Of a stretch of DNA of 64,000 nt, positions 3,584-39,140 are shown piece after piece. The notes below the pieces were generated by a model. The model had not been told where the DNA came from. It ran no database searches and saw only the letters and a program-made list of their open reading frames with translations. The stretch is from Clostridia bacterium (GTDB lineage Bacteria > Bacillota > Clostridia > RGIG6154), in the NCBI GenBank assembly GCA_017409875.1, contig JAFQRW010000008.1:181390-245389 (forward strand), written 5' to 3'. The first letter of the stretch is position 1. Every line of letters starts with the position of its first letter. A program made the position numbers and the translations under genes.

Positions 3584-6157
3584 ATGATTAATATTGATAT
3601 TGCTGTTGTGACTTATAATTCTCAAAAATGGATTGATTCGTTCTTAAATGCAATCAGAAATTCTAAATATGATTTAAAACGATTGCACTTATACTTTAAA
3701 GATAATGGTTCTTCAGATAGAACGGTTGAATTGTTGGAGAAATATGAATATAAAGCAGATTTTGATGAATACAAGGTAGTTTCAGAAAATAGCAATATAG
3801 GATTTGGGGCAGGAAGCAATCGCGCTGCACAAATGGGTAAAAGTCCATATATCTTGTTTTTAAATGTTGATACGGAAATTGAGGAAGATGCGTTTAAGGA
3901 ACTCAACAAGAAAGTTCAAATTTCAGATGAAAGCGTTGCAGTGTGGGAAATGCGTCAATTTCCTTATGAGCATCCTAAAATATATAGTCCGGTGACATTG
4001 GAAACATCATGGGTAAGTGGAGCATGTTTTTTATTACGCAGAGATATCTTTGATATTACAGGCGGGTTTGACGAATCTATTTTTATGTATGGTGAAGATG
4101 TGGAACTGTCATGGAGAATACGCTCTATGGGATATAAACTTATGTATGTCCCAGATAGTTGTGTATATCATTATGCATATGCTTCAGCAAATGAGATTAA
4201 ACCGGTACAGTATTATGGCTCACTTGAAGCAAATATTATGCTTAGGTGGAGATATGGAAATATTACACAAATAATAGCAGGATATAAATTTTTGCTTAAA
4301 GCATATTTCAAACCTGCACATTTTGCAGATGCAAAGAAAAATATTTTCCATATTATTATAAAATCTTTTAAAATGGGAGTTTCATTTAGAAACAAGTATG
4401 GGAAATTAAAAAATAATGTAGCAAAATTTTTAAGATATGACTATGAATATGCCAGAAATGGTGCATTTTATGAAAATGAAAGATTTGATAAAAACAATAC
4501 GCCTCTGGTGTCCGTAATAGTAAGAACTTGTGGCAGACCTTATGTTTTGGAGGAATGTCTTAAATCTATACGTAATCAAACATACAAGAATATAGAGGTG
4601 TGTATTGCTGAAGACGGATTACCAGTTTCAGAAGGTTTCATAAAAGATAGATTTCCTGATATGAACATCAAGTATGTTGCAACGATTGAAAAAAAAGGTA
4701 GAAGCAATGCAGGAAACAGAGCATTGGAAATGGCAACGGGAAAATATTTGAATTTTCTTGATGATGATGATGTGTTTTATTGCGATCATATTGAAACTAT
4801 GGTTAATGCAGCGTTGAAAAATCCTGATGAAAAAATGTTCTATTCAAAGTCGTTTGAAACACCAATAACGATTAAAACAAGGGAGCCATACGTGTATCAG
4901 CTTAAAGAATATTATGAAGTAAAGCGTGCAGAATATTCGTCGGCTACATTGATAATGAGTAATTTATTCCCAATACAAACTGTATTTTTTAAGCGAGAAG
5001 TGTATGAACAAAAAGGCGGATTTAGCACAAATTACGAATATCTTGAGGATTGGGATTTGTGGCTCAAGTATTCAGAAATTGCAGACTATATACTTGTTAA
5101 TAAAACAACATCGGAATATCGCGTGCCTGCAGTAAATAACATTGCTAAGGAAAGGGTTGTTTTACTCAAACAAAATGAGGAAACAATACGAAACAAGTAT
5201 TTTAAATTGAGTAAAAAAGCAGTAGAGTGTAAAAGTAAGATATATTTGACAAAATCCTTGATATATACAATTGATAGCGTGCAGGTTTATTCCAAAAGCA
5301 GTTTACAAGTAGTTGGATGGGCGATTGCAAGCAAGGAACTTAAAAATGCCGATGTTTTGGTGTGCATAACAAACAAAGACGGAAGTAAATTATACTTTAA
5401 CACTCACAGGTATAAAAGGATTGATGTAAATGAGGAATACCCACAAATAGATTGTAAAGATTGCGGCGTTTCTGCTTGGATTCCACTTGGAAAACATGGT
5501 GTTGATTGTATAAGGACAATAGAGTTTGTTTGCAAAAAAAACGATAAGTTTTACATAAATAGAAATTTTGCAATTCGGTTTTATAAATTTGAAAAAGCGC
5601 GCAAACTCATAGTAAAATTAAATAGAATTAAAAATATGTTTTCGGCAAATGCAAATCGAATTAACAAAAGGGAAGTGTCGGCGGCAACTGTTTTTGATGA
5701 GAATTACAACAAGGTGAAAAAACTTTACTCTCAAAAAAGTATTTATTCTCGCAGGATGCGATGTAATATAGATAAAGCAAAGATATATTGTGGTAATGTT
5801 TTGGTAGTTGTAGGGTGGTGTCTTCTTGAGGGGATTAAAAGTGAAGCAGTTACACCGATACTGAGAATTACTGATAAGAGGAAAAAAGTTCATTTAATTT
5901 ATTGTGAGAAGGAAATAAGAAAAGATGTAGTCAAGATATTTTTGGATAATAAGTATCTTAATAGTGGTTTTGTTATGGATATTGATCTTGATTTATATCG
6001 AATTAACAAGATAAAAAAAATAGAACTTTTAGCTGAATATAAAAAGAAGCTTTATATATGCTCAAAAAGTGAATATTCTTTTAGGCAAAGAATGAAGAAT
6101 TTTGTGGTTTCGGTATTGTACCATATTAATATGTTGCTTAATAATATTACTGTTTAG
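3584..6157 (+). CDS. large multidomain glycosyltransferase with two tandem GT2 (GT-A) domains and a C-terminal duplicated module
   Basis: 857 aa. First GT2 domain at the N-terminus (IDIAVVTYNSQKWI...DxD-like). Second GT2 from about aa 305 (LVSVIVRTCGRPYVLEECLKSIRNQTYKNIEVCIAEDG ... LDDDD). The C-terminal 350 aa contains two VVGW-containing repeats. Confidence 0.75.
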   Translation: MINIDIAVVTYNSQKWIDSFLNAIRNSKYDLKRLHLYFKDNGSSDRTVELLEKYEYKADFDEYKVVSENSNIGFGAGSNRAAQMGKSPYILFLNVDTEIEEDAFKELNKKVQISDESVAVWEMRQFPYEHPKIYSPVTLETSWVSGACFLLRRDIFDITGGFDESIFMYGEDVELSWRIRSMGYKLMYVPDSCVYHYAYASANEIKPVQYYGSLEANIMLRWRYGNITQIIAGYKFLLKAYFKPAHFADAKKNIFHIIIKSFKMGVSFRNKYGKLKNNVAKFLRYDYEYARNGAFYENERFDKNNTPLVSVIVRTCGRPYVLEECLKSIRNQTYKNIEVCIAEDGLPVSEGFIKDRFPDMNIKYVATIEKKGRSNAGNRALEMATGKYLNFLDDDDVFYCDHIETMVNAALKNPDEKMFYSKSFETPITIKTREPYVYQLKEYYEVKRAEYSSATLIMSNLFPIQTVFFKREVYEQKGGFSTNYEYLEDWDLWLKYSEIADYILVNKTTSEYRVPAVNNIAKERVVLLKQNEETIRNKYFKLSKKAVECKSKIYLTKSLIYTIDSVQVYSKSSLQVVGWAIASKELKNADVLVCITNKDGSKLYFNTHRYKRIDVNEEYPQIDCKDCGVSAWIPLGKHGVDCIRTIEFVCKKNDKFYINRNFAIRFYKFEKARKLIVKLNRIKNMFSANANRINKREVSAATVFDENYNKVKKLYSQKSIYSRRMRCNIDKAKIYCGNVLVVVGWCLLEGIKSEAVTPILRITDKRKKVHLIYCEKEIRKDVVKIFLDNKYLNSGFVMDIDLDLYRINKIKKIELLAEYKKKLYICSKSEYSFRQRMKNFVVSVLYHINMLLNNITV

Positions 6158-25347: not shown

Positions 25348-27639
25348 GTGGCAATAACATACGAACGAAAAAAACAAAATAATATTTTATATACAATTGT
25401 TGCTACACTTTTAATATGTGCAGTTTTTTTTGCGATGGTTGTATCTTTCTTTATTAAGGCTGAGGGCGATGCTTATGAAATGCTTCATATTCAGACAAAA
25501 CAGATTAAAGACGATCTTACCTTGCAGTTAAAATCAGACAGAGAAAACCTTATTACTATGGCAAACTTTGCGTCAAAGCTCTATGCTGACGGAAAAGGCT
25601 ATGAGCGTATGTTTGATTCCTTTAAGCCTATCGGTTTGTTTTCAAGAATTGGTATACTTAATCCGGACTGCACCTTTATCACAAAGGACGGAGTTTATGA
25701 TTTAAAAGGACAAATTTCATTTGAAGAACAAGCCCTTTTAGGAGAACATGTTACCGGTAGAACTTATAGCTATTCAATGCCCGATGAGCAGGTAGTCCGC
25801 AGCTCTGTTCCGATTCAGGTAAACGGAGAAACTGTTGGCATTATGTATGGTATTATCAATATCGAAACTATCAACGAAAAATACAATAATATGGCAAAAG
25901 AGCTTGATGCTCAGCTTTTTGTTTATGATAAGGAAACAGGAAAATTTATTATAGATACAATAAATGAAAAACCATCTGAACTGTCAAACTTGAAAGACAG
26001 GGAGTATAATGACGGCTATTCATACGAATTGATGGTAAATTCCGACAAAGGTTATTCTTCTTTTAAGTCAATACGTACAGGGGAGAATCTTTATATTCAT
26101 TATTCTATCATTGAAGATTTTAACTGGGGTATTATGCTTGCCCGTTATGAAACTCAGGTGTTTGAGGAAACTCATAGAATATCTCAAAACTTATTTGTTA
26201 TCTTTGGTGTAATCATCTTGATTATGGCAGTTTATCTTGAGTTGATATTAAAAAACGAAAAAAACAGAGCAAAATTAAATTCAGAGTCTTCTGCTATCAG
26301 GCATCTTCTTCTGGAAATAAACAGGCAACATGAAAATATAAATACCGCTTTAAGAAGAATAAAAGAATTTTCAAGTGCCCGTTCCTGCTTCTTTGCAGAT
26401 ACCGACGGAGAAGATTATTACTACATAAAGCCTTCCTTAAAGGATAAATGCTTGTTGGGTGACGAAAGAAAATACTTTATCAGTGAGCTTTTCAGGTATG
26501 CCGCAAACATTCATTCGGATAATTCATCTACCGGATTTATGCAGATTATTCCCAACAGTCACCTTTTAAAAACCAATCCGGAATTGTATCACTTTTTATT
26601 AAATCAAGGCATCAAAGATGTTTCTTTTGCGATTATTGCAGACAAAAACAACCATGTTAGTATCTTAGGTGCGATTAATCCCAAAAAAAGTTATGAAATC
26701 AGAAAACTCGCCAGCGATGTTGTTATTTGCTTTTCTATTGCCATATATAACAAAAAGCATCTTAACAAAACTGAGCTTGCTGCAACAACGGATTCTCTTA
26801 CCGGAGCCTTAAACCGTGTTGCATATAAAAAAGACATTCTCGTTTTTGACGAAGAAAAACCGGAAGATTTTTCCTGCATTTATATTGATGTTAACGAGCT
26901 TCATATCAGGAACAATAAATACGGACACGCCGCAGGCGATGAAATGCTTATCTATATTGCAAACTCCTTAAAGGAAGTGTTCTTTGGCCAGTACATTTAT
27001 CGTATGGGTGGCGATGAATTTTTAGTGTTTGCGAAAAAGATTCCACAAGAAATTATTAAACAGAGCATAGAAACCTTTGTTCAGCAAATAAAAACAAAGG
27101 ACTACAACGTTGCTATTGGTATATCTCACAGAACTCGAAATACAAACAGTGAAGAAATGGTTCGTGAAGCTGAAATCAGAATGTATGAGGCAAAGGCTCA
27201 GTATTATCAGGAAAAAGAAATGAAAAACACCTCGCATATTGATGACAAAGGTTATGTTCATACAAAGACAGGCATACTCGAAATTGATACGATGATTTCT
27301 ATTCTGAAAGAAAATTATAATGGAATATATCGTGTAGACTTAGATACAGACAAAGCACATCGTATTTTGATGCCTGCATACCTTGGTTATAATGAAAATG
27401 AGGAACATTTTTCTAAGCTTTTGATTAAGTATATAGATGATTCTGTTGCACCTGAATTTCACAGAGCAACTATGAACTTTTTGAACTATGATGCTCTTAA
27501 AAGACAACTTTTGGAAGGTAATACTCCCAGAATTACATATAAAAAGACTAACGGAGAAACTGTAATCCTTAGTATTTATAGGTTAAGCAATGAAGAAAAT
27601 TCTGTAAATAATACGCTTTGGGTTTTTGCAAAAGATTAA
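25348..27639 (+). CDS. membrane sensor diguanylate cyclase (periplasmic Cache-like domain, GGDEF domain with intact GGDEF motif, C-terminal extra domain)
   Basis: 763 aa, two TM helices flanking a periplasmic domain of about 250 aa. GGDEF domain has TGALNR ... YRMGGDEFLVFA. GTG start. Confidence 0.8.
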   Translation: MAITYERKKQNNILYTIVATLLICAVFFAMVVSFFIKAEGDAYEMLHIQTKQIKDDLTLQLKSDRENLITMANFASKLYADGKGYERMFDSFKPIGLFSRIGILNPDCTFITKDGVYDLKGQISFEEQALLGEHVTGRTYSYSMPDEQVVRSSVPIQVNGETVGIMYGIINIETINEKYNNMAKELDAQLFVYDKETGKFIIDTINEKPSELSNLKDREYNDGYSYELMVNSDKGYSSFKSIRTGENLYIHYSIIEDFNWGIMLARYETQVFEETHRISQNLFVIFGVIILIMAVYLELILKNEKNRAKLNSESSAIRHLLLEINRQHENINTALRRIKEFSSARSCFFADTDGEDYYYIKPSLKDKCLLGDERKYFISELFRYAANIHSDNSSTGFMQIIPNSHLLKTNPELYHFLLNQGIKDVSFAIIADKNNHVSILGAINPKKSYEIRKLASDVVICFSIAIYNKKHLNKTELAATTDSLTGALNRVAYKKDILVFDEEKPEDFSCIYIDVNELHIRNNKYGHAAGDEMLIYIANSLKEVFFGQYIYRMGGDEFLVFAKKIPQEIIKQSIETFVQQIKTKDYNVAIGISHRTRNTNSEEMVREAEIRMYEAKAQYYQEKEMKNTSHIDDKGYVHTKTGILEIDTMISILKENYNGIYRVDLDTDKAHRILMPAYLGYNENEEHFSKLLIKYIDDSVAPEFHRATMNFLNYDALKRQLLEGNTPRITYKKTNGETVILSIYRLSNEENSVNNTLWVFAKD

Positions 27640-27645
27640 AATTTG

Positions 27646-27674
27646 TTGACAAAGACGGTTCATTGTGTTAAAAT
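27646..27674 (+). promoter_or_regulatory. sigma-70-type promoter driving the riboswitch-led operon
   Basis: TTGACA (27646-51), 17-nt spacer, TAAAAT (27669-74). Confidence 0.55.
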
Positions 27675-27689
27675 TAATAACAAATGAAT

Positions 27690-27806
27690 ATTTAGCAAAA
27701 TCGGCGAAAGCCGGTGACGCAAAGCAAAGAGGCTAAAGCTTATGCCACGCCAGTCCAGCTGCAATGATAAGAGTCTTTCATGGCTTTCTATTGTTGCAGT
27801 TTTTTG
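27690..27806 (+). promoter_or_regulatory. candidate c-di-GMP-I (GEMM) riboswitch with terminator expression platform
   Basis: AGCAAAAUCGGC-GAAA-GCCGGUGACGCAAAGC reproduces the GEMM-I core: GCAAA, a P2 hairpin with GNRA tetraloop, then the near-invariant GACGCAAAGC. A second hairpin region follows (GCUUAU ... AUAAG). Its 3' arm overlaps an intrinsic terminator. Confidence 0.55.
27759..27806 (+). terminator. intrinsic terminator (riboswitch expression platform)
   Basis: CUGCAAUGAUA ... UAUUGUUGCAG stem of 11 bp (two G-U pairs) followed by UUUUUUG. Confidence 0.6.
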
Positions 27807-27822
27807 TTTATAGGAGAATTGT

Positions 27823-28515
27823 ATGAATGTAGTTACAAGAGAAGAAAAGAAATTTTTAATAAGTCTTGAAGAATTTCGGAATAAGTCACATTACCTTGAT
27901 AATCTGCTCATTCAGGATGAACATAACGGCATTGATGGATATATAATTAGGTCGCTCTATTTTGACACAGTTTACGATGATGATTTTTTTGAAAAACTTG
28001 AAGGTACAGAAACAAGGCGGAAGATACGCCTTAGAATTTATGACCCAAAACACGATTTTGCAATGCTGGAAATGAAGCAAAAACAGGGTGCGGCACAGAA
28101 AAAACGTTCACTTAGAATGACGAAAGCCGATGCCGAGGATTTAATCAAAGGCAAATATGAAGTTTTACTGAAATATGAAGAAGATTTTGCAAAAGAGTGC
28201 TACGGACTTATGCATTATAAATGCTACCGACCGAAAACGATTGTTCAGTATAACAGAAAGGCATACATAGCAAAGGAAAATAAAATAAGAATTACCTTTG
28301 ACAATAATATCGTGGCAACAGAAACCAATTTTGATTTGTTTTGCGAAAACCTTGTTATGTATCCTGTTTTAGACAAATTCAATGTTGTTTTAGAAGTGAA
28401 ATTTAACGGATTTTTGCTTGATTATATCAGGCAGTTTATAAACAGCATCAATAAAAGCGAGCTTTCGGTAAGCAAATACGCCTTAGCGAGACAGCAAAGT
28501 TATGCGGAGGTTTAA
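27823..28515 (+). CDS. VTC domain-containing protein (polyphosphate polymerase-like / CYTH-like fold)
   Basis: 230 aa. The pattern YIIRSLYFDT ... RRKIRLRIYD ... LEMK is typical of the bacterial VTC domain that co-occurs with DUF4956 and CotH. Confidence 0.65.
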   Translation: MNVVTREEKKFLISLEEFRNKSHYLDNLLIQDEHNGIDGYIIRSLYFDTVYDDDFFEKLEGTETRRKIRLRIYDPKHDFAMLEMKQKQGAAQKKRSLRMTKADAEDLIKGKYEVLLKYEEDFAKECYGLMHYKCYRPKTIVQYNRKAYIAKENKIRITFDNNIVATETNFDLFCENLVMYPVLDKFNVVLEVKFNGFLLDYIRQFINSINKSELSVSKYALARQQSYAEV

Positions 28516-28521: not shown

Positions 28522-30276
28522 ATGAAAAAATGTTTTTGTTTATTGCACACTTTGATAATGCTTGCAACAGCTTTTAGTGTCAGCGCAACTTCTCAAGGCA
28601 GAGCGATTTGGCAGGATCCGGAAAACGTTGTAGTTATCTGTGGCGAAGAAGATGCGGAGCACCAATTCTTCAGAGCCGATACTATAGACGGAGAATATGA
28701 ATATATTGGAAAATCATCTACAGGCACATTTCGTGATGACACGGCAAGCTATCCCGGTACATATTTTTATAAAATAAAAAAATATGATGCATCAGGTGAA
28801 AAAACTTACGAATCAGGTCCGATAAAGCCAGATATTTATCCGCAAGCGCTTTCAAAGGTCAGTGTGATAATGTATCATAATTTTGTGAGCGAGGAAGATG
28901 TTAAGGCGGGAGTGGAATTTGATGAGTATTCCATTAAACCGGAGGATTTTGAGGAAGATTTGCTCTGGCTTAAAAACAATGGATATGTAACAATAACCTC
29001 AGACGATTTGTTAAGGCATCTTGAAGGGAAAAAATCACTGCCGCAAAAGGCGGTTATAATTTCTATAGATGACGGCTCGTGGGGAGTATATACAAATGCA
29101 TATCCGCTTTTGAAAAAATATAATATGAAAGCTGATTTTAACATAATCGGTGCAAATATTGATAAAGCCTGGGAAAACTTAGATTCGGGAGGAACAAGAA
29201 GCGGTGAAAGTGCTCCGTATTGCACATGGGAAGAGCTTGCCCAAATGTTAGATAGCGGAAAAATCAATATATGTTCACATACATACGGACTTCATGTTTA
29301 TGATAAAGAAAAACGAATCGGAATGAGTATGATGGAAGGCGAGACTCCAGAAGATTTTGCAGATATTGTAAAAAAGGATTACAACCTTTCCGTTAGTTGT
29401 ATAGAAGGCTGGACGGGTAAAAAGCCGGAAACAGTAGCTTATCCATATTCAAAAAGAAGTGCCGAGAGCGACAAGCTCGTTCTTGAAAATACAGGATATA
29501 AGATTCTTATGGCAGGAGAAGGCGCAAGAGGTACTGCTGCAAATTATTTTGTTAAAGACTGCCACATCACAAACCAGCTTATGCTTTTAAGCAGACCTTG
29601 TAGAATGGAAGGAACTCCGATTGGAACCTATCTTGAAAGAATAGATAAAAAAGATGGTCAGAACGGAATAAACAAAAGTATAGATTTCATCAAGGTGCAA
29701 AATACCGATGAGATTGCATCGGATTATCAAATATTTGATGATGTTAAAACAAACGCATGGTTTTCGGGAAGTGTGTATTATTCGTATTTAAATAGTTTGA
29801 TGAAAGGCGTAGGCAACAAAGAGTTTGCTCCTGACGATTATATAAACAGAGCGATGGCTGCAACGCTACTTAACAGACTTTCAGGAAATGATGATGCTAA
29901 AACAAATATCATGTTTGGTGATGCAGAAGGCACAGAATGGTGGTATAATTCGGCAAAATGGGCAGCAGAAAACGGAATACTTAATGTCTTTGATGATAAA
30001 AGCTTTAAGCCTGAACAACCAATCAGCAGAGAAAACCTTGCACGGGCAATGTATAATTGCGGAAGGTATTTAAAACTTGATATGTCTGAAAAGGCAGATA
30101 TTACTAAATTTACCGATTATGCAAATATAACTCAGAAAAATAAAGATGCAGTTGCCTGGGCAGTAGCAAAGGGTATTTTTAAAGGTAACGCCGATGGAAC
30201 TTTTAATCCGTCTGGTAATGTAACAAGAGCGGAAATGTCTATGGTACTCAGAAATTGGCTCAGTAAAGGAGAGTAA
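28522..30276 (+). CDS. secreted polysaccharide deacetylase (NodB homology domain) with three C-terminal SLH domains
   Basis: Signal peptide. Deacetylase motifs (ISIDDGSWGVY, CSHTYGLH). C-terminal SLH repeats (e.g. FKGNADGTFNPSGNVTRAEMSMVL). Confidence 0.75.
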   Translation: MKKCFCLLHTLIMLATAFSVSATSQGRAIWQDPENVVVICGEEDAEHQFFRADTIDGEYEYIGKSSTGTFRDDTASYPGTYFYKIKKYDASGEKTYESGPIKPDIYPQALSKVSVIMYHNFVSEEDVKAGVEFDEYSIKPEDFEEDLLWLKNNGYVTITSDDLLRHLEGKKSLPQKAVIISIDDGSWGVYTNAYPLLKKYNMKADFNIIGANIDKAWENLDSGGTRSGESAPYCTWEELAQMLDSGKINICSHTYGLHVYDKEKRIGMSMMEGETPEDFADIVKKDYNLSVSCIEGWTGKKPETVAYPYSKRSAESDKLVLENTGYKILMAGEGARGTAANYFVKDCHITNQLMLLSRPCRMEGTPIGTYLERIDKKDGQNGINKSIDFIKVQNTDEIASDYQIFDDVKTNAWFSGSVYYSYLNSLMKGVGNKEFAPDDYINRAMAATLLNRLSGNDDAKTNIMFGDAEGTEWWYNSAKWAAENGILNVFDDKSFKPEQPISRENLARAMYNCGRYLKLDMSEKADITKFTDYANITQKNKDAVAWAVAKGIFKGNADGTFNPSGNVTRAEMSMVLRNWLSKGE

Positions 30277-30278: not shown

Positions 30279-30959
30279 ATGAGAAGTCAGATTTTTAATT
30301 TAATTAAAGACCAGTCAACACTTACGTGGGAGCAGATTGTTGCAAATATTATCGTTTCGGGAATTTTAGGATTATTGATTTTCATATCCTATATGATTTC
30401 ACACCGTGGAACGATTTACAGTAAAAAGTTTAATGTTTCACTCGTTGTGCTTACGGTTCTTACCTCAATGGTTATGACGGTTATTGGCAACAATGTTGCA
30501 CTGTCGCTTGGTATGGTAGGTGCACTTTCTATTGTTCGTTTCAGAACGGCCATTAAAGATTCAAGGGACACGGTTTACATATTCTGGACAATAATTGTAG
30601 GTATCTGCTGCGGTGTTGGTGACTTTATTGTTGCAGGTATTGGAAGCGGTTTTGTATTTATTCTTCTCCTCATCTTTGGAGCAATTAAAAATAACAATCG
30701 TATGCTTGTGATTATCCGGGGAGAAAGAACAAAGGAAGCACAGATTCAGGCAGTGATGTATAAATTTTTTGGTGCAAAAGCGGTTTTAAGAGTTAAAAAC
30801 TCAACAGATACATCTATTGAATTTATCTATGAAATTACACAGAAATTGCTTTTGCAGGCGGAAAGAAAAAACAATATTGCAATCAATGACGAAATTTATA
30901 AAATCGGCAATATTGACTACGTAAACGCAGTAATGCAAAACGATGAAATTTCCAACTGA
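30279..30959 (+). CDS. DUF4956 domain-containing membrane protein
   Basis: 226 aa. TM helices then SIVRFRTAIKDSRDTVYIFW, characteristic of DUF4956, the usual partner of VTC-domain proteins. Confidence 0.65.
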   Translation: MRSQIFNLIKDQSTLTWEQIVANIIVSGILGLLIFISYMISHRGTIYSKKFNVSLVVLTVLTSMVMTVIGNNVALSLGMVGALSIVRFRTAIKDSRDTVYIFWTIIVGICCGVGDFIVAGIGSGFVFILLLIFGAIKNNNRMLVIIRGERTKEAQIQAVMYKFFGAKAVLRVKNSTDTSIEFIYEITQKLLLQAERKNNIAINDEIYKIGNIDYVNAVMQNDEISN

Positions 30960-30978: not shown

Positions 30979-32460
30979 TTGAAATATAAGTTAATAGGAT
31001 TATTATCAGTAGCCCTTACGCTGATTGCAATAATCTTTATAAGCCGGTCTATGCCTGAAGATAATGGCACAAGATACATAGAACATATTATGGCAGAAGA
31101 AAAAGAGGCTTGCAAGTTACACGAAAATGATACCATTTGCACGCATCTGCCTATTGTAAATATAAATACAAACGGGACAGAAATTCCCGGAAAACCTATA
31201 TATGACGAAGAGTTTAGAGTTATAGATTATACTTTGGCAACAGATGGCACAACTACAATAAAAGCATCTTTAGATGTGATAAACAATGAAAAAGCGTATA
31301 ATCATCTGACCGACCCGAAAACAGATATGGGCGAGGTAATGATAAGGGTAAGAGGCCATTCGTCAAGAAGATTTGAAAAGGCAAATTATTTTATTCGCTT
31401 TATAGATTCTGCAGGAGAAAATAACCTGCAGGAGTTTTTGGGAATGGATGCACACCACGAATGGGCGCTTCACGGGCCGTTCCTTGATAAAACGCTTATC
31501 CGTAATTATATGTGGTATAACATAGCAGGAGAAATGATGGAATACAGCCCCAATGTTAGATTTTGCGAGCTTCTTATTAACGGAGAATACAGAGGCCTTT
31601 ATCTTGCAACGGAGATGATTACAGCTGGGAAAGAAGGCGCAAGACTATCTCTTTCTGTAAACAAAAAAGATAACACTTTTTCGGGTTATGCTCTTCGCCT
31701 TGACTGGGGAGACACCGATGAGGCAAACAAGCTCTATCCTTTTACAAATTATACAACAAGAGCAAAAACACAACACGAGCTTGTATATCCCGGAACAAAA
31801 AATATGACACCGGAATTAAAAGAAGCTATAAAGAATGAGTTTTCATTATTTGAAAAAACGCTTTATTCTTATGACTACAACAATGAAAAATACGGATACA
31901 AAAATTATATAGATACCGATTCATTTGTAGATTATTTTCTGATAAACGAGTTGACTTGTAATTACGATGCAGGCTCACTTTCAACTTATATCTATAAAGA
32001 CACTCCGGGCAAATATAAAATGTGTGTGTGGGACTTTAACTCAGCCTGCGATTTGTATCAGGAAAGTGCTGTTGTCACAGAATCTTTTAATTTAAATTCC
32101 AGATTGTATTTTCAAATGCTTTTTATGGATGATGAATTTACCGACAAGGTAGTAAATAGATATCACGAACTTAGAAAAACTGTTTTCAGTGAAGAGTATT
32201 TAATGAACTTTATTGATGATACTGTAGAGTATTTAAAGCCTGCTATCAAAAGAAATTACGATAAATGGGGTTATACGTTTAGCCCAGAATATGACCTTTT
32301 GCATCCTTCCGGAAGAAACTTAAGGACATACGAAGAGTATTTGATGCAACTAAAAGATTTTATCAAAAAAAGGCTTGCATTTATGGACGAAAATATCGAG
32401 TCACTTAAACAAAACAGTACAGAATCAAAAACTAAAAAATATAATGAAGTTTCAGATTAA
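30979..32460 (+). CDS. cotH: CotH kinase family protein (spore coat protein H-like atypical protein kinase)
   Basis: 493 aa. N-terminal TM or signal anchor. CotH-family core (e.g. MIRVRGHSSRRFEKANYFIRF, WDFNSACD). TTG start after AGGAGG. Confidence 0.7.
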   Translation: MKYKLIGLLSVALTLIAIIFISRSMPEDNGTRYIEHIMAEEKEACKLHENDTICTHLPIVNINTNGTEIPGKPIYDEEFRVIDYTLATDGTTTIKASLDVINNEKAYNHLTDPKTDMGEVMIRVRGHSSRRFEKANYFIRFIDSAGENNLQEFLGMDAHHEWALHGPFLDKTLIRNYMWYNIAGEMMEYSPNVRFCELLINGEYRGLYLATEMITAGKEGARLSLSVNKKDNTFSGYALRLDWGDTDEANKLYPFTNYTTRAKTQHELVYPGTKNMTPELKEAIKNEFSLFEKTLYSYDYNNEKYGYKNYIDTDSFVDYFLINELTCNYDAGSLSTYIYKDTPGKYKMCVWDFNSACDLYQESAVVTESFNLNSRLYFQMLFMDDEFTDKVVNRYHELRKTVFSEEYLMNFIDDTVEYLKPAIKRNYDKWGYTFSPEYDLLHPSGRNLRTYEEYLMQLKDFIKKRLAFMDENIESLKQNSTESKTKKYNEVSD

Positions 32461-32480: not shown

Positions 32481-34655
32481 TTGAAAAAGTTTATTATTAT
32501 AATATCGCTGATTATACTTGTACTTCTTGGTTTTGATTGGCTTTACTTTTACGAGGGCGTGTATTTTAATTCCGGAAAAGAAAAGCCTATAGAATATTTT
32601 ACGAAGGTGGACGGCGAAGAAATTTATATAAAAAAGGATGATTCCTTTGAATCTTATGAGATTCGAGGCGTCAATTTAGGTTCAGGGATTCCCGGTGAGT
32701 GGGCAACATCTTTTGCAATAGATGAAGAGACTTATCTGAGATGGTTTAAATATATTCAGGATATGGGTGCAAATACCATTCGCATTTACACCATTCAAAA
32801 CGACACTTTCTATAATGCCTTTTATCAATACAACAAAGATAACGAAAATCCGCTTTATCTTATCCACGGCGTATGGGTGAATGACTATGTTTTGAACTCT
32901 CACAGAGATGCATACAGTAAGGATTTTTATGATTTGTTTTTAGAACACAGCAAAGTAATGGTTGATGTTATTCATGGCAAAAGGAAATTGAATCTTGGCA
33001 GAGTTGCCAGCGCCGGTCACGGTACATACCAAAATGACATATCCGATTGGGTTATAGGCTATATTTTAGGTGTTGAGTGGGACGATTCAACCGTTGCTTA
33101 CACAGATGATTTGTATAAGGGAATAGAGGGTTATTCATCCTACAAAGGCGAGTATATGTATACATCCCCTGATGCCACTCCATTTGAAACGATGCTTACA
33201 ATGGTAGGGGACAAGGTTATTGAGTATGAAACAAAGCGCTATGGCGAGCAGAGGCTTGTTGCATTTTCAAACTGGCCCACAACAGACCCGTTTGAGTATC
33301 CGCAAATTATCAAGGAGTTCTTTATGAAATGTGCCCGTGTAGATACGGAGCATATTAAGACAACTGATGCGTTTATTCCCGGTCAGTTTGCTTCATACCA
33401 TGTTTATCCTTACTATCCTTATTATTTAAGCTTTGCAGAGGACTGGTCTGTATTTGGCATTGAGTCAAAGGATACTTTCCGTAATGAAGAGGGAAATGTC
33501 AATGCATACCGTGCATATCTTACAATGCTCAATAACCACCATACAATGCCTGTTGTAATATCCGAATTTGGTGTATCTACCGGAAGAGGCATGGCACAAG
33601 TCGATAAAGACACCGGCAGAAATCAGGGTAACACATCAGAACAAAAGCAAGGTCAGGCTCTTGTTGAGTGTTGGGAAGATATTAAAATCACAGGTTGTAA
33701 CGGCGGATGCGTGTTTACCTGGCAGGACGAATGGTTTAAGCGCACATGGAACACAATGCACGCAGTAAATCTTACAAGAACTGCTTATTGGTCTGACTAT
33801 CAGACAAACGAGCAGTATTTCGGGCTTTTGTCATTTGACCCCGGAAACGAAAAGAGCGTTTGCTATGTGGATGGCGATGTTTCAGAGTGGACTGATAGTG
33901 ATATAATTCAAAGCGGGAACACCGAACTTTCGGTTAAATATGACGAAAAGTTTATATATTTTCTTGTAAAAAAAGACGGGCTTGATTTTGAAAATGAGGT
34001 TTTATATATTCCTGTTGATGTAACCGAAAAAACAGGCAGTAATTACTGCAAAAACTTTGATGTGAAATTTGCAAGAGATGCGGATTTTGTTATTGTTTTA
34101 AACGGAAAAGATAACAGCCGTATTATGGTGCAGGAACGCTATGATGCCCTTCGTTCAACCTATTCGAAGGATATTCATAAATTCGATACATATCTTAAAG
34201 AGAATGTTCCCGATAAAAATTCTTCTTTATTTGTAAATGTTGAATTGATACTTCGTACCGCAATCGCACTTTCGCCCGAAACTAAGGAGACGGTTGCAGA
34301 GGCTTACGAAACAGGAAAACTTTTGTACGGTAATGCAAATCCCGAGAGCAGAGATTTTAATTCTCTTGCGGATTTTTGCGTGGGCGGGGATTATATTGAA
34401 ATCAAACTCCCTTGGCAGCTTTTAAACTTTGCAGACCCGTCTAAAATGCTTGTTCACGATGACTATTATGACGGAAATTACGGAATTGAATATATAAGCG
34501 TTGATAAGATATATGCAGGCGTTGGTACTGGAAATGACAGAATTTCACTTGATGAAATTAAACTTAAAGGCTGGGGTAACAAGGTAACCTATCACGAAAG
34601 ATTAAAAAGTTCATATTATATAATGCAGAATTTATGGAAGGAGGGCGCAGAATAA
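32481..34655 (+). CDS. hypothetical membrane-anchored protein, putative TIM-barrel glycoside hydrolase-like (clan GH-A-like)
   Basis: 724 aa. N-terminal TM. IRGVNLGSGIPGEWATSF...ANTIRIY resembles the start of a (beta/alpha)8 glycosidase. VVISEFGV resembles a GH-A nucleophile motif. C-terminal beta-rich region of about 300 aa. Confidence 0.4.
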   Translation: MKKFIIIISLIILVLLGFDWLYFYEGVYFNSGKEKPIEYFTKVDGEEIYIKKDDSFESYEIRGVNLGSGIPGEWATSFAIDEETYLRWFKYIQDMGANTIRIYTIQNDTFYNAFYQYNKDNENPLYLIHGVWVNDYVLNSHRDAYSKDFYDLFLEHSKVMVDVIHGKRKLNLGRVASAGHGTYQNDISDWVIGYILGVEWDDSTVAYTDDLYKGIEGYSSYKGEYMYTSPDATPFETMLTMVGDKVIEYETKRYGEQRLVAFSNWPTTDPFEYPQIIKEFFMKCARVDTEHIKTTDAFIPGQFASYHVYPYYPYYLSFAEDWSVFGIESKDTFRNEEGNVNAYRAYLTMLNNHHTMPVVISEFGVSTGRGMAQVDKDTGRNQGNTSEQKQGQALVECWEDIKITGCNGGCVFTWQDEWFKRTWNTMHAVNLTRTAYWSDYQTNEQYFGLLSFDPGNEKSVCYVDGDVSEWTDSDIIQSGNTELSVKYDEKFIYFLVKKDGLDFENEVLYIPVDVTEKTGSNYCKNFDVKFARDADFVIVLNGKDNSRIMVQERYDALRSTYSKDIHKFDTYLKENVPDKNSSLFVNVELILRTAIALSPETKETVAEAYETGKLLYGNANPESRDFNSLADFCVGGDYIEIKLPWQLLNFADPSKMLVHDDYYDGNYGIEYISVDKIYAGVGTGNDRISLDEIKLKGWGNKVTYHERLKSSYYIMQNLWKEGAE

Positions 34656-35761
34656 TGAAAATAGAAATTATGATTTATACTTATATTGCAATTTGCGTAA
34701 GTATGATTTTGTATAATATAATCTATATTTTCGTTTTAAAGCACAGACAGCGCGCCCTTGTTATTGATTCCGAAAAATTAAAGAAAATATTAACTGAACA
34801 AATAGACATACTCAAAAAAGGCGAAGAGATATCCGAAAAGCATAAAAAGTTTCTTTGCCGTGAACTTGATAAAACTGCGGGAATTACCGCTTTTGACAAA
34901 GCACTTGAAGTAGTGTTTGATAAAGAGGAAGAATTTACCGAAAAATACCTTGTGGATACTTTCTCTGTTTTTGAAATTCTCACTCATAGATACATAACCA
35001 AGGATACACTTAAAATTGCATACTTCCCATACATACTGCACAAGTACAATATTTTAAAACATCACGAAGGCGAAAGGCTTACATCAGCACTTTTTGACAT
35101 TTTGCGTTCTGTAAATGTATATTGCAGAGAAAACACGCTAAAAGCACTTTACAGTATGCAAAAACCTGATATTGTTGGGAGAGCACTTAAAGTTATCGAT
35201 ACAAATCTTTCATTTCATCATCCCAAGCTCATAAGTGATGGTCTTATGTTTTATAAGGGTGACAGGGAGGAGCTTAAAAACACACTTTTTAGATACTTTA
35301 AAGATTACTCTGTGCAGATGCGGGTTGATATCTTAAATTACTTCAGATTTGCAGGCGTAAGATGTGATGATGAAATGCTGGAGTTATTAAAAAACGAGAA
35401 GGAAAACAATGAAATCAGGTTTTCTGCTATTCGTTATTTTGAAAAATTTCCATTAAGCGATGCAGAACCTGTCATATTAAATTTAGCAGAGAATCTGGAA
35501 AATCGCACATGGGAATATCAGGCGATTGCAACCTCGGCACTAAAATCCTATCCGGGGGATACGACATTTAGAATTTTAGTAAAAAATCTTTCCAGCTCAA
35601 ACTGGCATATAAGACAAAACAGTGCCATTTCCTGCGAAAAGCTTGGTTATACATATCAGGACTTAATAAATGTGTTTGACGGAAATGACAGATATGCAAG
35701 AGAGATTATCAGGTATCGTCTTGACAGAAGAAATGCAGAGGAAGAGGCGGTGAAAGCATAA
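34655..35761 (+). CDS. HEAT-repeat (PBS lyase-like) membrane-anchored protein, hypothetical
   Basis: ATG at 34655 overlaps the upstream stop (TAATG). N-terminal TM. Repeated alpha-helical HEAT-like units (e.g. NWHIRQNSAISCEKLG). Confidence 0.45.
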   Translation: MKIEIMIYTYIAICVSMILYNIIYIFVLKHRQRALVIDSEKLKKILTEQIDILKKGEEISEKHKKFLCRELDKTAGITAFDKALEVVFDKEEEFTEKYLVDTFSVFEILTHRYITKDTLKIAYFPYILHKYNILKHHEGERLTSALFDILRSVNVYCRENTLKALYSMQKPDIVGRALKVIDTNLSFHHPKLISDGLMFYKGDREELKNTLFRYFKDYSVQMRVDILNYFRFAGVRCDDEMLELLKNEKENNEIRFSAIRYFEKFPLSDAEPVILNLAENLENRTWEYQAIATSALKSYPGDTTFRILVKNLSSSNWHIRQNSAISCEKLGYTYQDLINVFDGNDRYAREIIRYRLDRRNAEEEAVKA

Positions 35762-37164
35762 TGCAGATGGAATTAATTAAGCAAATTTTTGATGTTATCG
35801 GCGTTTGCTTCATCGTTTATTTAATTGGCTACTCCACATTTTTGTTTTTATCGGTGGTGGTTGGTGCAACCACTCTTTATAAAAGAAAAATGCAGGACAG
35901 ACTTATGAATAAGTTTGCCGAGAACTATTTTGTGCCAATAACAATAGTTACCCCTGCTTACAATGAAGAAGTTACCGTTGTGCAGACTGTAAAGTCGCTT
36001 TTAACCCTTGATTACAAGCTTTATGAAATTATTGTGGTGGATGACGGCTCAAAGGATAGCACATCACAGCAGTTAATTGATGCTTATAATATGCATCCTG
36101 TAAGAAGACCTCTTCACAGGTCTATTGACTGCCAGCCTGTAGAATTTATATATGAATCCCACGAACAAAAAGTACCGCTTACACTCATCCGTAAGAAAAA
36201 CGGCGGGAAAGCAGATGCACTTAATATGGGTATCAATGCTGCACAATATCCGTATTTTATATGTATGGATGCCGACTCGGTTTTGCAGTACGACTCACTA
36301 AAAAAACTGGTTGTACCTGTTTTGGAAGAAGAAAATGTGGTTGCAGTCGGCGGAACGGTAAGACCGTCTAACGATGTGGAACTTTATGAGGGCAGGGTTG
36401 TAAAATACAGACTCCCTAAAAACATATTGGCTTGTATGCAGCTTTTAGAATATGACCGCTCATTTTTAGCATCAAGAATACTGTTTGACAGATTCAACGG
36501 CTCTTTAATTATCTCAGGAGCATTTGGAATGTTCAAAAAAGAAACAGTTATTGCAGCGGGCGGATATGACCATGGCACAATGGGCGAGGATATGGAGCTT
36601 GTGGTAAAACTTCATTCCTACTGTCTTACAAATAAAATTCCTTATTCCATCAAATACGCAACCGATGCGGTTTGTTGGACGCAGGTGCCCGAAAAGCTCG
36701 GCGACCTTAAAAAACAAAGAAAACGTTGGCATTTGGGACTTTTTCAGACAATGTGGAAGCATAAAAAGATGATGGCTAATCCAAAATACGGAGCAGTTGG
36801 CTTTGTATCATATATGTATTTTCTTTTATATGAATTGCTTTCACCCTTTATTGAAGTTTTCGGAGTGTTTACAATGATTGCAGCATACCTAATTGACCTT
36901 TTGAACTTGCCGTTTATGCTACTATTTATGCTGATTTATGCTTCATATAACTCTATACTCACTTTGACGGCGTTCTTTTCAAGAATACAGACAATTGACT
37001 TAACGGTAAAACCAAGTGATTGTCTTAGAGCAATAATGCTTTGCTTTTTTGAGGTTACTACACTTAGGTTTATTATGGCGTTTGTTCGACTTACAGCATT
37101 TAAAGGGTACAAAAAGAAAAAGCTTGATTGGGGACGAATTGAGCGAAAGAAAATGAATATTTAA
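35761..37164 (+). CDS. processive membrane glycosyltransferase family 2 synthase (cellulose synthase / PgaC / YdaM-like)
   Basis: 467 aa. N-terminal TM. GT2 domain (VTPAYNEEVTVV...VVDDGSKDST, DAD). QxxRW motif (QRKRW). Four C-terminal TM helices. Confidence 0.8.
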   Translation: MQMELIKQIFDVIGVCFIVYLIGYSTFLFLSVVVGATTLYKRKMQDRLMNKFAENYFVPITIVTPAYNEEVTVVQTVKSLLTLDYKLYEIIVVDDGSKDSTSQQLIDAYNMHPVRRPLHRSIDCQPVEFIYESHEQKVPLTLIRKKNGGKADALNMGINAAQYPYFICMDADSVLQYDSLKKLVVPVLEEENVVAVGGTVRPSNDVELYEGRVVKYRLPKNILACMQLLEYDRSFLASRILFDRFNGSLIISGAFGMFKKETVIAAGGYDHGTMGEDMELVVKLHSYCLTNKIPYSIKYATDAVCWTQVPEKLGDLKKQRKRWHLGLFQTMWKHKKMMANPKYGAVGFVSYMYFLLYELLSPFIEVFGVFTMIAAYLIDLLNLPFMLLFMLIYASYNSILTLTAFFSRIQTIDLTVKPSDCLRAIMLCFFEVTTLRFIMAFVRLTAFKGYKKKKLDWGRIERKKMNI

Positions 37165-37182: not shown

Positions 37183-39063
37183 ATGAAAAAGTTTATATTG
37201 CTCTTACTAGCAGTGTTTGCATTTTTTGTGCAGCCAGTTTTTGCAGAGGTTATAACTACACACAGTACAGAGGGTTATGCAAGTTACCTTTATGTTGCAG
37301 GAAATCCGGATAATTACCCAATAGAATATTACGATGAAGATGAAAAAGCATATAAGGGTGTTATACCCGATTTGCTAAGTAAAATTTCTGAACATTCAGG
37401 ACTTGATTTTGTCTATATTAACGGAAATAAAAACGAAAGATATGAGATGGGCGAAAATCTTCAGGCGGATATCATTTCATCACTAGAGACAAATACTTCC
37501 TACGGCAAGGAGTATCTCGAACTGATTTCTTATGAAAATTACGGAAAAACCCAAAAAACAGGTCTTGTTTTTACAACACTTGCAGATGATAATATAATTA
37601 CCAAGATTAAAACTGCCTTAAACGAAATATCCCTTGATGAAAGAAATGGTATATACCTGTCCTATGCATCACAAACCTCAAAAACAAGCTATAAATGGAT
37701 AATAGGCACACTTTTGTTGTCCTTCATCCTTCTTGCTTTTGTTGTGTTTTTGTTTTTACATATCAAAAGAATGCGAAAAGAAAACGAAGTTGACAAAATG
37801 ACAGATGCAGAAACAGGAATGGGAAATCTGCAGTTTTTCAAATATCATTTCAGGCACACTATAGGGGACATTTCCAGAAATCTGTACCACATTGCATATA
37901 TTATCTTAGACAGTAGTTACCTCCGTTCCTATCATGGCGACAGTTCATTTGATGAGGTTTTAAAATACACAGCATCTGTTCTGTCAGAACACGCAGGTGA
38001 CAGAGAAATACCTGCGCGAATTACCGAAAACGGATTTGCCCTTGCGTATCAGTCTACAAATGACGAAGATGCAAAAAATAGACTCAAAGAAATTATGGAT
38101 AAACTTAACAGCTTTGAGGGCGTGAAGGATAAAAGCAACAAGCTTGTTTTCCACGCAGCAACCTATCATCTTGCACAGACAGACAGAAACTGTGAAATTT
38201 TGCTATTTAATCTGAGAAAGAACTGTAACGCTATTTTTGGAACCGATAACCAGATTATGTATTGTGACACCCATTCTATGAATTTGGTTCAGGAGGAAAA
38301 GAAAATTACAGAAAGCATTTTAAAGGGCTTTGAAAACAATGAATTTAAGATGTATATGCAGTTTATTGTTGATAACAAAACAAAAAACATTGTGTCAGCA
38401 GAAGCACTTTCAAGATGGGACAGTCATGAAAAAGGACTGATAGGTCCGGGTAAATATATAAAAAATATGGAAAATTCAGGGATGATTTCAAGACACGATT
38501 TTTATATGTTTGAGTGTGCTTGCCGCCAGCTTGAAAAATGGAAGGATACGAAATACGGCCACATCACGATTTCCTGCAACTTTACAAGAATAACTCTTTC
38601 TGAGGAAAACTTTATAGATAAGCTCAAGATGATTTCCGACGGATACAATTTTGATAAATCAAAAATAGCCATAGAAATTACTGAGGATGCTATCGAAAAG
38701 GACAGAGAAACTGCAACAAATAATGTTAGACTTTGTAAGGAGCTCGGCTTTAAAATTTACCTTGATGACTTGGGAAGTGGTTATACATCCCTTGCAAATT
38801 TATGTGATTATCCTATTGATGTAGTTAAGATTGACCGTGATATTCTGCTTAAAACCGAGTCAGAAAATGGCAAAAAATTATTTGCCGGAATCATAGCTCT
38901 TGCTCATAATATGGACATAAAAGTTATTTGCGAAGGCGTTGAAACAGAAATGCACAACGCACTTGTGTCGGAATCTGATTGCGATTTCGTTCAAGGATGG
39001 TATTACTCAAAAACACTTCCGTTGGAAGAATGTGAGTCGTTTATATCATCAAAATCTATTTAA
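37183..39063 (+). CDS. membrane c-di-GMP phosphodiesterase (periplasmic domain, TM, degenerate GGDEF, EAL)
   Basis: 626 aa. Signal peptide and TM at about aa 165-190. GGDEF-like domain lacking the GGDEF motif. EAL domain with EALSRW, DDLGSGYTS and EGVE motifs. Confidence 0.75.
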   Translation: MKKFILLLLAVFAFFVQPVFAEVITTHSTEGYASYLYVAGNPDNYPIEYYDEDEKAYKGVIPDLLSKISEHSGLDFVYINGNKNERYEMGENLQADIISSLETNTSYGKEYLELISYENYGKTQKTGLVFTTLADDNIITKIKTALNEISLDERNGIYLSYASQTSKTSYKWIIGTLLLSFILLAFVVFLFLHIKRMRKENEVDKMTDAETGMGNLQFFKYHFRHTIGDISRNLYHIAYIILDSSYLRSYHGDSSFDEVLKYTASVLSEHAGDREIPARITENGFALAYQSTNDEDAKNRLKEIMDKLNSFEGVKDKSNKLVFHAATYHLAQTDRNCEILLFNLRKNCNAIFGTDNQIMYCDTHSMNLVQEEKKITESILKGFENNEFKMYMQFIVDNKTKNIVSAEALSRWDSHEKGLIGPGKYIKNMENSGMISRHDFYMFECACRQLEKWKDTKYGHITISCNFTRITLSEENFIDKLKMISDGYNFDKSKIAIEITEDAIEKDRETATNNVRLCKELGFKIYLDDLGSGYTSLANLCDYPIDVVKIDRDILLKTESENGKKLFAGIIALAHNMDIKVICEGVETEMHNALVSESDCDFVQGWYYSKTLPLEECESFISSKSI

Positions 39064-39096: not shown

Positions 39097-39140
39097 GCAA
39101 TGAGCATAACCCGTGTGGGTTACGCTCATTGCTTTTTTGT
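39097..39140 (+). terminator. strong rho-independent terminator ending the operon
   Basis: GCAATGAGCATAACCC-gtgt-GGGTTACGCTCATTGC then TTTTTTG. Confidence 0.85.

Follow-up and report, generated by a model that had tools for sequence, protein, structure and literature searches.

Does the short leader between a diguanylate cyclase gene and a VTC/DUF4956/CotH operon of an uncultured Clostridia bacterium carry a riboswitch for cyclic di-GMP (c-di-GMP), and if so, in which direction does it switch and what does it control? We addressed this question in a stretch of 64,000 nucleotides (nt) from contig JAFQRW010000008.1 (hereafter the window), in which the leader occupies positions 27646-27822. An earlier reading of the letters without database searches (the sequence-only reading) had proposed a class I c-di-GMP (GEMM-I) aptamer with a terminator-based ON platform at this site. 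Our analysis indicates that the leader probably holds a class I c-di-GMP riboswitch that works as a transcriptional ON switch through terminator exclusion and gates an eight-gene, exopolysaccharide-like operon.

The Rfam covariance model for c-di-GMP-I aptamers, RF01051, which the sequence-only reading had named as a check, matched significantly at 27684-27766 on the plus strand (57.7 bits with a gathering score of 35, E = 1.2e-8). The alignment spans the full model (positions 1-87 of 87), and this was the sole Rfam match in the 64-kb window at gathering thresholds. A covariance model built in this analysis from 24 diverse orthologous leaders, R1, scored the window aptamer at 84.7 bits. The GEMM-I core reads AGCAAAAUCGGC-GAAA-GCCGGUGACGCAAAGC at 27694-27725. 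The parts of the leader are as follows.

27646-27674, plus strand: sigma-70-type promoter with extended -10 (TTGACA 27646-27651, 17 nt, TAAAAT 27669-27674, TG 27666-27667)
27684-27766, plus strand: c-di-GMP-I (GEMM-I) aptamer, functional core 27694-27762 (RF01051, R1, covariation)
27695-27720, plus strand: P2 hairpin with a 2-bp stem, G27695-C27720 and C27696-G27719 (covariance-model alignment)
27700-27705/27710-27715, plus strand: upper part of P2, a 6-bp stem with GAAA tetraloop 27706-27709; an AAA plus GAC internal loop lies between the two stems
27721-27723, plus strand: AAA linker, kept in 74 of 74 aptamers
27721, plus strand: A27721, equivalent of A47 in Vc2 numbering, invariant
27723-27760, plus strand: P3 hairpin, the true second helix (covariance model, covariation)
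27723-27725/27758-27760, 27729-27730/27754-27755, 27731-27733/27749-27751 and 27738-27739/27744-27745, plus strand: pairs of P3 (covariance model)
A27726/A27757 and A27728/C27756, plus strand: non-canonical pairs of P3 (covariance model)
27734-27737 with 27746-27748, plus strand: tetraloop-receptor variant, UAAA with CAC (alignment)
27761-27763, plus strand: GCA 3' junction, in 74 of 74 aptamers
27757-27805, plus strand: intrinsic terminator with U tract 27800-27805 (folding, covariation)
27758-27775/27782-27800, plus strand: terminator stem of 18 bp, C27788 bulged, loop 27776-27781; a further pair A27757-U27801 is possible
27812-27825, plus strand: Shine-Dalgarno sequence AGGAG (27812-27816) and ATG start codon (27823) of the VTC gene (sequence)

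Read from its base, P3 consists of AGC/GCU, the two non-canonical pairs, GA/UC, GGC/GCC, a receptor-like UAAA/CAC internal loop and a GC-UUAU-GC tip. The linker is nearly always AAA among GEMM RNAs (Weinberg 2007, PMC1950547). In Vc2, the class I aptamer of Vibrio cholerae, A47 is intercalated between the ligand bases. C92 forms Watson-Crick pairs with a ligand guanine (PMC6140456). The equivalents of A47 and C92 are present and invariant here, and position 20 is A, not G. We infer that C27762 is the C92 equivalent and would pair with the second ligand guanine, because it is the sole invariant C on the 3' side of P3, i.e., by elimination. The VTC start codon follows 57 nt downstream of the aptamer, with the terminator in between. 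The aptamer is a genuine one of the c-di-GMP-I riboswitch class, conserved and of typical structure.

Orthologous leaders were drawn from 80 loci of species-representative genomes, picked via an alignment of VTC-protein homologues. All derive from uncultured Clostridia, labelled mostly Oscillospiraceae, Acutalibacteraceae, Congzhengia and Ructibacterium with a few Lachnospiraceae; the genera Congzhengia and Ructibacterium are classified in Oscillospiraceae. RF01051 was found in 12 of 15 further loci scanned with Rfam (37-75 bits). R1 detected a single aptamer in each source, in every case ahead of the VTC gene, namely in the window and in 73 of the 79 testable species-level loci, and matched nowhere else in the 858 kb searched. 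In the other six loci, the aptamer was not found even with search filters off. The GEMM-I class and core that had been placed in the leader of this operon are thus borne out both by the Rfam score and by their recurrence among species.

The fold is supported by covariation. In a structure-blind MAFFT alignment, 92.7% of the cells pair, compared with 14-40% in slid controls, and none of 500 shuffles reaches the covariation score. Both sides change in 15 of 20 pairs, which provides the compensatory support from homologous leaders that the sequence-only reading had named as decisive. All six pairs of the upper P2 stem show two-sided changes in this alignment, P3 is supported as well, and a 74-sequence alignment gives the same picture, P3 included. 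As with the linker and the junction, the AAA and GAC internal loops are invariant in all 74 aptamers, and the GAAA tetraloop is kept in 72. The receptor internal loop also covaries, reading UAAG/UAU with a G.U wobble in 43 leaders and UAAA/CAC with A.C in 11, including the window. The commonest receptor among the relatives is the 11-nt-type GCUAAG/UAUGC, of which the window carries the UAAA/CAC variant. The swap from G.U to A.C is consistent with an isosteric protonated A+.C replacing the wobble.

Some leaders show individual peculiarities. The aptamer of a Bariatricus sp. metagenome-assembled genome (L060:3491-3577) reads GGCCAAAC...GACGGAAAGC; it swaps the near-invariant, pocket-closing G21-C46 pair to C-G in a compensatory manner and has the highest Rfam score seen (74.8 bits). 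The aptamer at L043:5834-5926 is degraded (G21 to A, 37 bits in Rfam), and the VTC gene there is followed directly by a phosphodiesterase fragment, not by the operon, so that the locus looks like a decaying one. In two leaders (L023:5762-6000 and L053:5671-6000), an additional ~180-330 nt separate the terminator of the riboswitch from the VTC start; in L023 this segment includes a second strong hairpin (-24 kcal/mol). Two others (L008 and L075) retain the aptamer with insertions of 30-40 nt in the P3 loop.

The promoter TTGACA-17-TAAAAT was found as the sequence-only reading had described it. It matches 11 of 12 positions and is conserved, with a match of at least 10 of 12 in 57 of 70 orthologous leaders, 51 of those 57 also having TG at -15/-14. 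In the orthologous leaders, the -10 box ends 8-9 nt before the aptamer. Transcription would therefore start at ~27681-27683, leaving almost no RNA 5' of the aptamer. At the other end of the leader, the Shine-Dalgarno sequence and start codon of the VTC gene are sequestered in none of the predicted leader folds.

How could such an aptamer act on transcription? Downstream of it lies a long hairpin, CUGCAAUGAUAAGAGUC...GGCUUUCUAUUGUUGCAG, followed by six U residues at 27800-27805. The terminator elements reported before, CUGCAAUGAUA...UAUUGUUGCAG plus U6 at 27759-27805, are indeed present, with support from folding and covariation. The terminator has a predicted energy of -19.2 kcal/mol, and its pairs reach probabilities of 0.88-1.0 in the ligand-free ensemble, in which the base of P3 has a probability of 0.0. 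Across the clade of the window it is 96.6% paired, eight pairs show two-sided changes, and none of 500 shuffles reaches this level. A simple terminator scanner did not call it because of the bulge in the stem. The terminator calls in L021, L026, L049 and L053 are heuristic artefacts, stopping at U runs in the loop, and not exceptions. In the minimum-free-energy (MFE) fold of the full leader, the A-rich linker and the P3 5' strand (AAAGCAAAGA, 27721-27730) pair with the U tract at 27800-27809 and lengthen the terminator helix.

Aptamer and terminator share 5-6 nt (27757/8-27762), namely the last 3-4 nt of P3 together with G27761 and C27762, the latter pairing with G27796 in the terminator. The overlap takes in 3-4 nt of P3 in the window clade and 4-11 nt in the distant orthologues L060-L080. 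Every leader was folded once unconstrained and once with the aptamer pairs forced and the junction GC unpaired. Unconstrained, nearly all leaders formed the full terminator abutting the U tract. With the aptamer forced, 5-6 basal terminator pairs were lost and a gap of 5-6 nt to the U tract opened. In the window leader the hairpin fell from 18 bp and -19.2 kcal/mol to 13 bp and -7.0 kcal/mol, and in the distant orthologues it was abolished or cut to a few pairs. An intrinsic terminator needs a stem that reaches its U tract. The leader thus has the shared nucleotides and mutually exclusive folds that characterise a terminator-exclusion platform.

Without ligand, 27782-27800 would pair with 27758-27775 to form the 18-bp terminator beside the U tract, stripping three basal P3 pairs and C27762 from the aptamer, and transcription would end short of the VTC gene. 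Once c-di-GMP occupies the three-way junction (A27694, A27721 and C27762), the aptamer would retain 27757-27762; all that could then form is a weak 13-bp hairpin, rich in AU and GU and 5 nt away from the U tract, and RNA polymerase would read through. Given that the ligand-free default is to terminate and that the locked aptamer permits read-through, the direction of the switch is most likely ON. The ON logic by terminator exclusion proposed in the sequence-only reading is therefore upheld, but the conflict does not run through the helix claimed there; the true overlap is 27757/8-27762.

Several points weigh against an ON switch for c-di-GMP. The overlap in the window clade is short (3-4 nt of P3 plus two junction nucleotides), and the 13-bp residual hairpin may form in the bound state. 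Ligand binding, switch direction and transcription start are all deduced by computation. The characterised class I riboswitches of Clostridioides difficile, another clostridial species, are all OFF (PMC11477304). The ligand itself is less certain because A at position 20 lowers c-di-GMP affinity and permits binding of cGAMP (3',3'-cyclic GMP-AMP) in Vc2. As for P1, a search between the 5' flank (27684-27693) and 27763-27769 gave only two plus two A-U pairs around a 2x2 mismatch, and no conserved P1 pairing was found in the distant-clade leaders either. We conclude that the aptamer has no P1 or at most a vestige of one; the -10 box is so near that hardly any 5' RNA remains from which a P1 helix could be drawn. 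For tight binding of the ligand by Vc2, P1 is important. The Cd1 aptamer of C. difficile likewise lacks P1 (PMC9262584). Finally, a third fold, distinct from both aptamer and terminator, is the MFE structure for transcript 3' ends at 27785-27793; were it to persist kinetically in the absence of ligand, it would serve as an antiterminator and the logic would be inverted.

This third fold came from folding the growing transcript. The aptamer is the MFE structure up to a 3' end of 27775. The third fold pairs AGC27723-25 with GCU27783-85, AGAGGCU27728-34 with AGUCUUU27772-78, and CUUAU27739-43 with AUAAG27767-71, the last of these being a pairing that is also part of the second helix in the sequence-only reading. 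The aptamer and the upper terminator return from 27795, and the full terminator forms from 27799. On such a basis, the riboswitch could be an OFF switch: the P3 5' strand (27723-27743) would pair with the terminator 5' arm (27767-27785) as a ligand-free antiterminator, and the ligand would lock P3, free the terminator arm and promote termination. Its MFE status over that interval speaks for such a mechanism, as does the prediction that 33 of 49 window-clade leaders adopt it at one transcript length or another, and the C. difficile class I riboswitches are OFF via a competing antiterminator (PMC11477304, PMC9262584). However, the median advantage of the third fold over the aptamer is just -2.5 kcal/mol, before tetraloop-receptor and ligand energies are counted. 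Sixteen of the 49 window-clade leaders and all 16 leaders of the distant clade lack it; it is without covariation support and has a probability of 0.0 at full length. Furthermore, a bound-state terminator could not form its five GC-rich basal pairs, which use P3 and C27762. An OFF switch is expected to be antiterminated by default, whereas the ligand-free fold here is the terminator, and repression of an exopolysaccharide operon by c-di-GMP would be biologically unusual. We rejected the third fold as a conserved antiterminator, as it is not conserved and only marginally stable, and retain an OFF switch as an improbable alternative.

A second question concerns the ligand of the proposed ON switch. 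A27694 (alignment column 11) occupies the position of G20 in Vc2, which recognises the first ligand base (PMC6140456). The sequence-only reading had the class right but missed this A, which bears on ligand specificity. A at this position defines GEMM-Ib, for which it is necessary, not sufficient. In Vc2, the G20A change gives values of 53 nM for c-di-GMP and 120 nM for 3',3'-cGAMP, compared with picomolar and 10 uM in the wild type, and a natural A20 aptamer of Clostridium beijerinckii is bispecific (PMC6140456). The physiological ligand could accordingly be 3',3'-cGAMP, or the riboswitch could be truly bispecific. Yet column 11 is A in 46 and G in 28 of the 74 orthologous aptamers, so that A20 is not conserved as in GEMM-Ib, and two leaders (L035:1756-1903 and L041:5856-6003) are identical over 148 nt except for A or G at this position. 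Both variants hence serve one operon, and aptamers with G20 discriminate against cGAMP.

The flanking enzymes point in the same direction. The upstream GGDEF protein has an intact RMGGDEF motif and a base-recognition motif, NNKYGHAAGD, with the canonical Asp and not the Ser (or Thr) of Hypr enzymes, and an EAL phosphodiesterase stands at the end of the operon. The adjacent gene, to which this comparison is confined, thus shows no coupling to cGAMP synthesis. A Hypr-type cyclase next door, which would favour cGAMP, was rejected on account of this Asp. Natural A20 aptamers include c-di-GMP-responsive as well as bispecific cases (PMC6140456, PMC4933901), and Bc2 of Bacillus thuringiensis, which also has A here, responds to c-di-GMP in vitro and in vivo (PMC4933901). 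Since position 20 flips between A and G, a canonical GGDEF lies upstream and an EAL domain ends the operon, the ligand is probably c-di-GMP, possibly with cross-reactivity to cGAMP; cGAMP as the physiological ligand, or true bispecificity, appears unlikely.

Far less probable still is a decayed or non-functional aptamer beside a constitutive attenuator, or beside a terminator that simply ends transcription of the upstream GGDEF gene. This would fit the lack of any separate terminator for the GGDEF gene ahead of 27757-27805, and in one relative, L043, the aptamer is indeed degraded (37 bits, G21 to A) and the operon next to it is broken. It is contradicted by pocket nucleotides that are invariant in 74 of 74 aptamers, by compensatory changes that keep P2, P3 and the terminator across 73 species, and by a dedicated, conserved promoter immediately upstream. 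The lack of a cyclase terminator before the riboswitch does imply that the riboswitch terminator may also end the cyclase transcript at low c-di-GMP.

The least credible model is the one originally claimed, in which P3 is formed by AAAGCUUAU (27735-27743) and AUAAGAGUCUUU (27767-27778) and its 3' arm doubles as the 5' arm of the terminator: the segments are complementary in the window and in 90.7% of the cells of the 43-sequence full-leader alignment, but the shuffle mean is 90.5% and 220 of 500 shuffles reach the observed value, a control slid by +2 still gives 82.7%, only one pair shows a compensatory change, the probability in the full-length ensemble is 0.0, the 5' arm falls in the apical tetraloop-receptor/loop region of the real P3, and both the covariance model and covariation place P3 at 27723-27760, where it closes before the claimed 3' arm begins. 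We therefore rejected this helix as the aptamer P3; its complementarity is at chance level and is a by-product of the A/U-rich composition.

What would the ON switch control? The genes around the leader are as follows.

25348-27639, plus strand: membrane sensor plus GGDEF diguanylate cyclase, 763 amino acids (Pfam GGDEF 72.9 bits; dCache_1 25.5 bits, below cutoff)
27823-28515, plus strand: VTC/polyphosphate-polymerase-domain protein (domain search)
28522-30276, plus strand: PgaB/IcaB-like CE4 deacetylase with three SLH domains (deacetyl_PgaB 130 bits vs a cutoff of 322)
30279-30959, plus strand: DUF4956 membrane protein with weak MgtC similarity (domain search)
30979-32460, plus strand: CotH kinase-family protein (domain search)
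32481-34655, plus strand: 724-amino-acid protein without a family; N-terminal transmembrane helix and, tentatively, a predicted glycoside-hydrolase-like TIM barrel (structure model)
34634-35761, plus strand: HEAT-repeat-like protein (domain search)
35761-37164, plus strand: PgaC/IcaA-like glycosyltransferase family 2 (GT2) synthase (PgaC_IcaA 149 bits vs a cutoff of 422)
37183-39063, plus strand: SBP_bac_3 sensor with a degenerate GGDEF (SFDEV) and an EAL phosphodiesterase domain (EAL 192 bits)
39097-39132, unstranded: 16-bp perfect GC-rich hairpin GCAATGAGCGTAACCC-ACAC-GGGTTATGCTCATTGC (terminator-like by scan on the minus strand)

The Pfam match confirms the GGDEF cyclase gene that had been noticed directly upstream of the leader, and nearly every locus of the window clade has an orthologue in the same place, immediately ahead of the riboswitch. 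An RxxD I-site was not found in the translation of this protein. The operon that follows comprises eight tightly spaced plus-strand genes. The VTC/CotH operon of the sequence-only reading is thus present with its trio, but it is much larger than had been described, including a GT2 synthase, a deacetylase, a glycoside-hydrolase-like protein and a terminal EAL protein. The EAL domain of the latter carries the EAL, DDLGSG, EGVE and QGW motifs. The hairpin at 39097-39132 is followed by a gap of 270 nt and then an unrelated gene. It is a candidate operon-end terminator on the plus strand and may be bidirectional.

The core order VTC, DUF4956, CotH, 724-amino-acid protein, HEAT and GT2 is conserved in all loci. 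The deacetylase gene lies between VTC and DUF4956 in only ~17 of 80 loci, and in L054 it stands after DUF4956. It is thus a mobile accessory gene in an otherwise fixed operon. The 724-amino-acid protein had no sequence match in Pfam (E up to 5), NCBIfam or the PDB. Its structure model, of moderate confidence (mean pLDDT 59), shows an N-terminal transmembrane helix, a beta/alpha region and an unmodelled, beta-rich C-terminal half. The best Foldseek matches are all TIM-barrel glycoside hydrolases (GH), namely GH157, GH2, GH50, GH72 and the exopolysaccharide hydrolase PslG, with E values of 1e-10 to 1e-4 and TM-scores of only 0.25-0.43. The protein may therefore have a barrel of the clan GH-A type and represent an unclassified glycoside-hydrolase family. 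By size and order, a counterpart also occurs in Planococcus and in the necrotic-enteritis locus NELoc-2 of Clostridium perfringens.

Because their scores lie below the equivalog cutoffs of PgaC_IcaA and deacetyl_PgaB, the GT2 synthase and the deacetylase are relatives, not orthologues, of PgaC and PgaB, and the operon does not belong to the poly-N-acetylglucosamine (PNAG; pga/ica) type. Judged from its gene content, it looks like a synthase-dependent exopolysaccharide-like locus, PNAG-like in its working but not a member of that type. Nor does it form a Pel accessory module: the trio is present, interrupted by the deacetylase gene, and no Pel-family matches in Pfam or NCBIfam were found among the neighbouring genes, the partners being GT2, HEAT and the glycoside-hydrolase-like protein. 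In the proposed circuit, the upstream sensor cyclase would supply c-di-GMP, which would turn the riboswitch ON and with it the matrix operon and the phosphodiesterase. The latter, encoded by the last gene, would degrade the signal and so provide negative feedback.

In the open-access literature, we found no publication in which a c-di-GMP riboswitch is connected with VTC, DUF4956 or CotH, in agreement with the novelty that had been claimed for this link. The sole co-occurrence in the literature (PMC4448311) concerns an unrelated, long Bacillus subtilis cotH leader, and the C. difficile riboswitch catalogue lists no such connection between riboswitch and module. The RNA itself is ordinary: the aptamer comes up in a routine Rfam scan, and its ON architecture has been on record since 2007 (PMC1950547). 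What is mildly new is the operon that it targets. We tentatively entertain a wider interpretation, namely that this is an unreported, widespread link in at least 73 uncultured, Oscillospiraceae-like Clostridia species of gut and rumen. A c-di-GMP riboswitch would there gate a non-Pel exopolysaccharide machine built around VTC/DUF4956/CotH, with its own cyclase and phosphodiesterase forming a self-contained negative-feedback circuit, and the alternation of A and G at position 20 would adaptively tune the affinity, or the cross-talk of c-di-GMP with cGAMP, from species to species.

The VTC/DUF4956/CotH trio is a recurring, enigmatic module of Gram-positive polysaccharide loci, among them streptococcal Pel loci and C. 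perfringens NELoc-2. Its placement under c-di-GMP control would be independent evidence for a place in the sessile, matrix-producing programme. The window locus is an occurrence of the trio beyond Pel loci, at odds with what has recently been stated (PMC12345266). The riboswitch as a reporter, or c-di-GMP as an inducer, would offer an experimental handle on the operon product, and the A/G flip in the otherwise identical L035 and L041 leaders forms a natural pair for studies of affinity and specificity. The value of the locus thus lies in a regulatory clue to a gene module and in this natural pair, not in new RNA biology.

Among known riboswitches, the general architecture is that of Weinberg 2007, who reported a terminator overlapping the second hairpin in 78 of 322 GEMM instances and predicted these to be ON with ligand (PMC1950547). 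The GAAA tetraloop with a receptor in the second hairpin and the AAA linker are common to that description and the window, whereas the gene families listed there do not include VTC, DUF4956, CotH or glycosyltransferases. Vc2 and Cd1 (C. difficile flgB) share the aptamer fold and the A47/C92-equivalent pocket, and Cd1 resembles the window in having no recognisable P1. Both differ from it in having G20 and in being OFF switches. In Cd1, a separate antiterminator exists and the terminator can coexist with the bound aptamer, whereas aptamer and terminator are mutually exclusive in the window.

Two ON switches come closer. Bc2, upstream of the collagen adhesion protein gene cap in B. thuringiensis/B. 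cereus (Tang et al. 2016, PMC4933901), is likewise a Firmicute GEMM-I aptamer with an intrinsic terminator and has A at the G20 equivalent (A11). It controls a surface/biofilm function, and its ON response to c-di-GMP has been shown in vitro and in vivo, while the window element is known computationally. Bc2 differs in serving a single adhesin gene and not a polysaccharide operon, and in a 5' leader of 76 nt where the window has almost none. In the pilM GEMM-Ib riboswitch of Geobacter metallireducens (Landgraf et al. 2022, PMC9262584), which is also ON and also has A at the G20 equivalent, aptamer and terminator are mutually exclusive as in the window, and the cytosine that pairs with the ligand is captured by the terminator (C75-G102 in pilM, C27762-G27796 in the window). 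The pilM switch belongs to Deltaproteobacteria, senses 3',3'-cGAMP made by Hypr GGDEF enzymes and forms a ligand-induced P1; the window, in contrast, has a canonical GGDEF and EAL context, alternating A and G among orthologues, and no drawable P1.

Other versions of the gene module also exist. C. perfringens NELoc-2 (PMC2879425) and a Planococcus plasmid both have the order VTC, DUF4956, CotH, a ~690-amino-acid protein, HEAT and GT, as in the core of the window operon. On plasmids of Planococcus maritimus and Pseudobutyrivibrio xylanivorans the module is present and no riboswitch was found, even with search filters off, which shows that the link between riboswitch and operon is lineage-specific. 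The P. maritimus plasmid (L081, NZ_CP059541.1) contains 1.1 kb without an annotated gene (3356-4469), ~900 nt upstream of its riboswitch-less VTC-DUF4956-CotH-HEAT-GT operon, with one hypothetical gene (4470-5396) between the two. The 1.1-kb stretch matched no Rfam family.

The trio of CotH, polyphosphate polymerase and DUF4956 is likewise present in Gram-positive Pel loci (Whitfield et al., 10.1101/768473), and in Streptococcus intermedius the same three genes (SIR_1592-1594) stand beside a polysaccharide synthase system, as in the window (PMC12345266). Deletion of two members of the trio changes Pel levels and aggregation in S. intermedius, and its authors found the trio only in Pel loci and reported no c-di-GMP regulation there (PMC12345266). 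The window differs from these Pel-type loci in the PgaC-like GT2 partner that takes the place of pel, in its riboswitch, and in the cyclase and phosphodiesterase that flank the operon.

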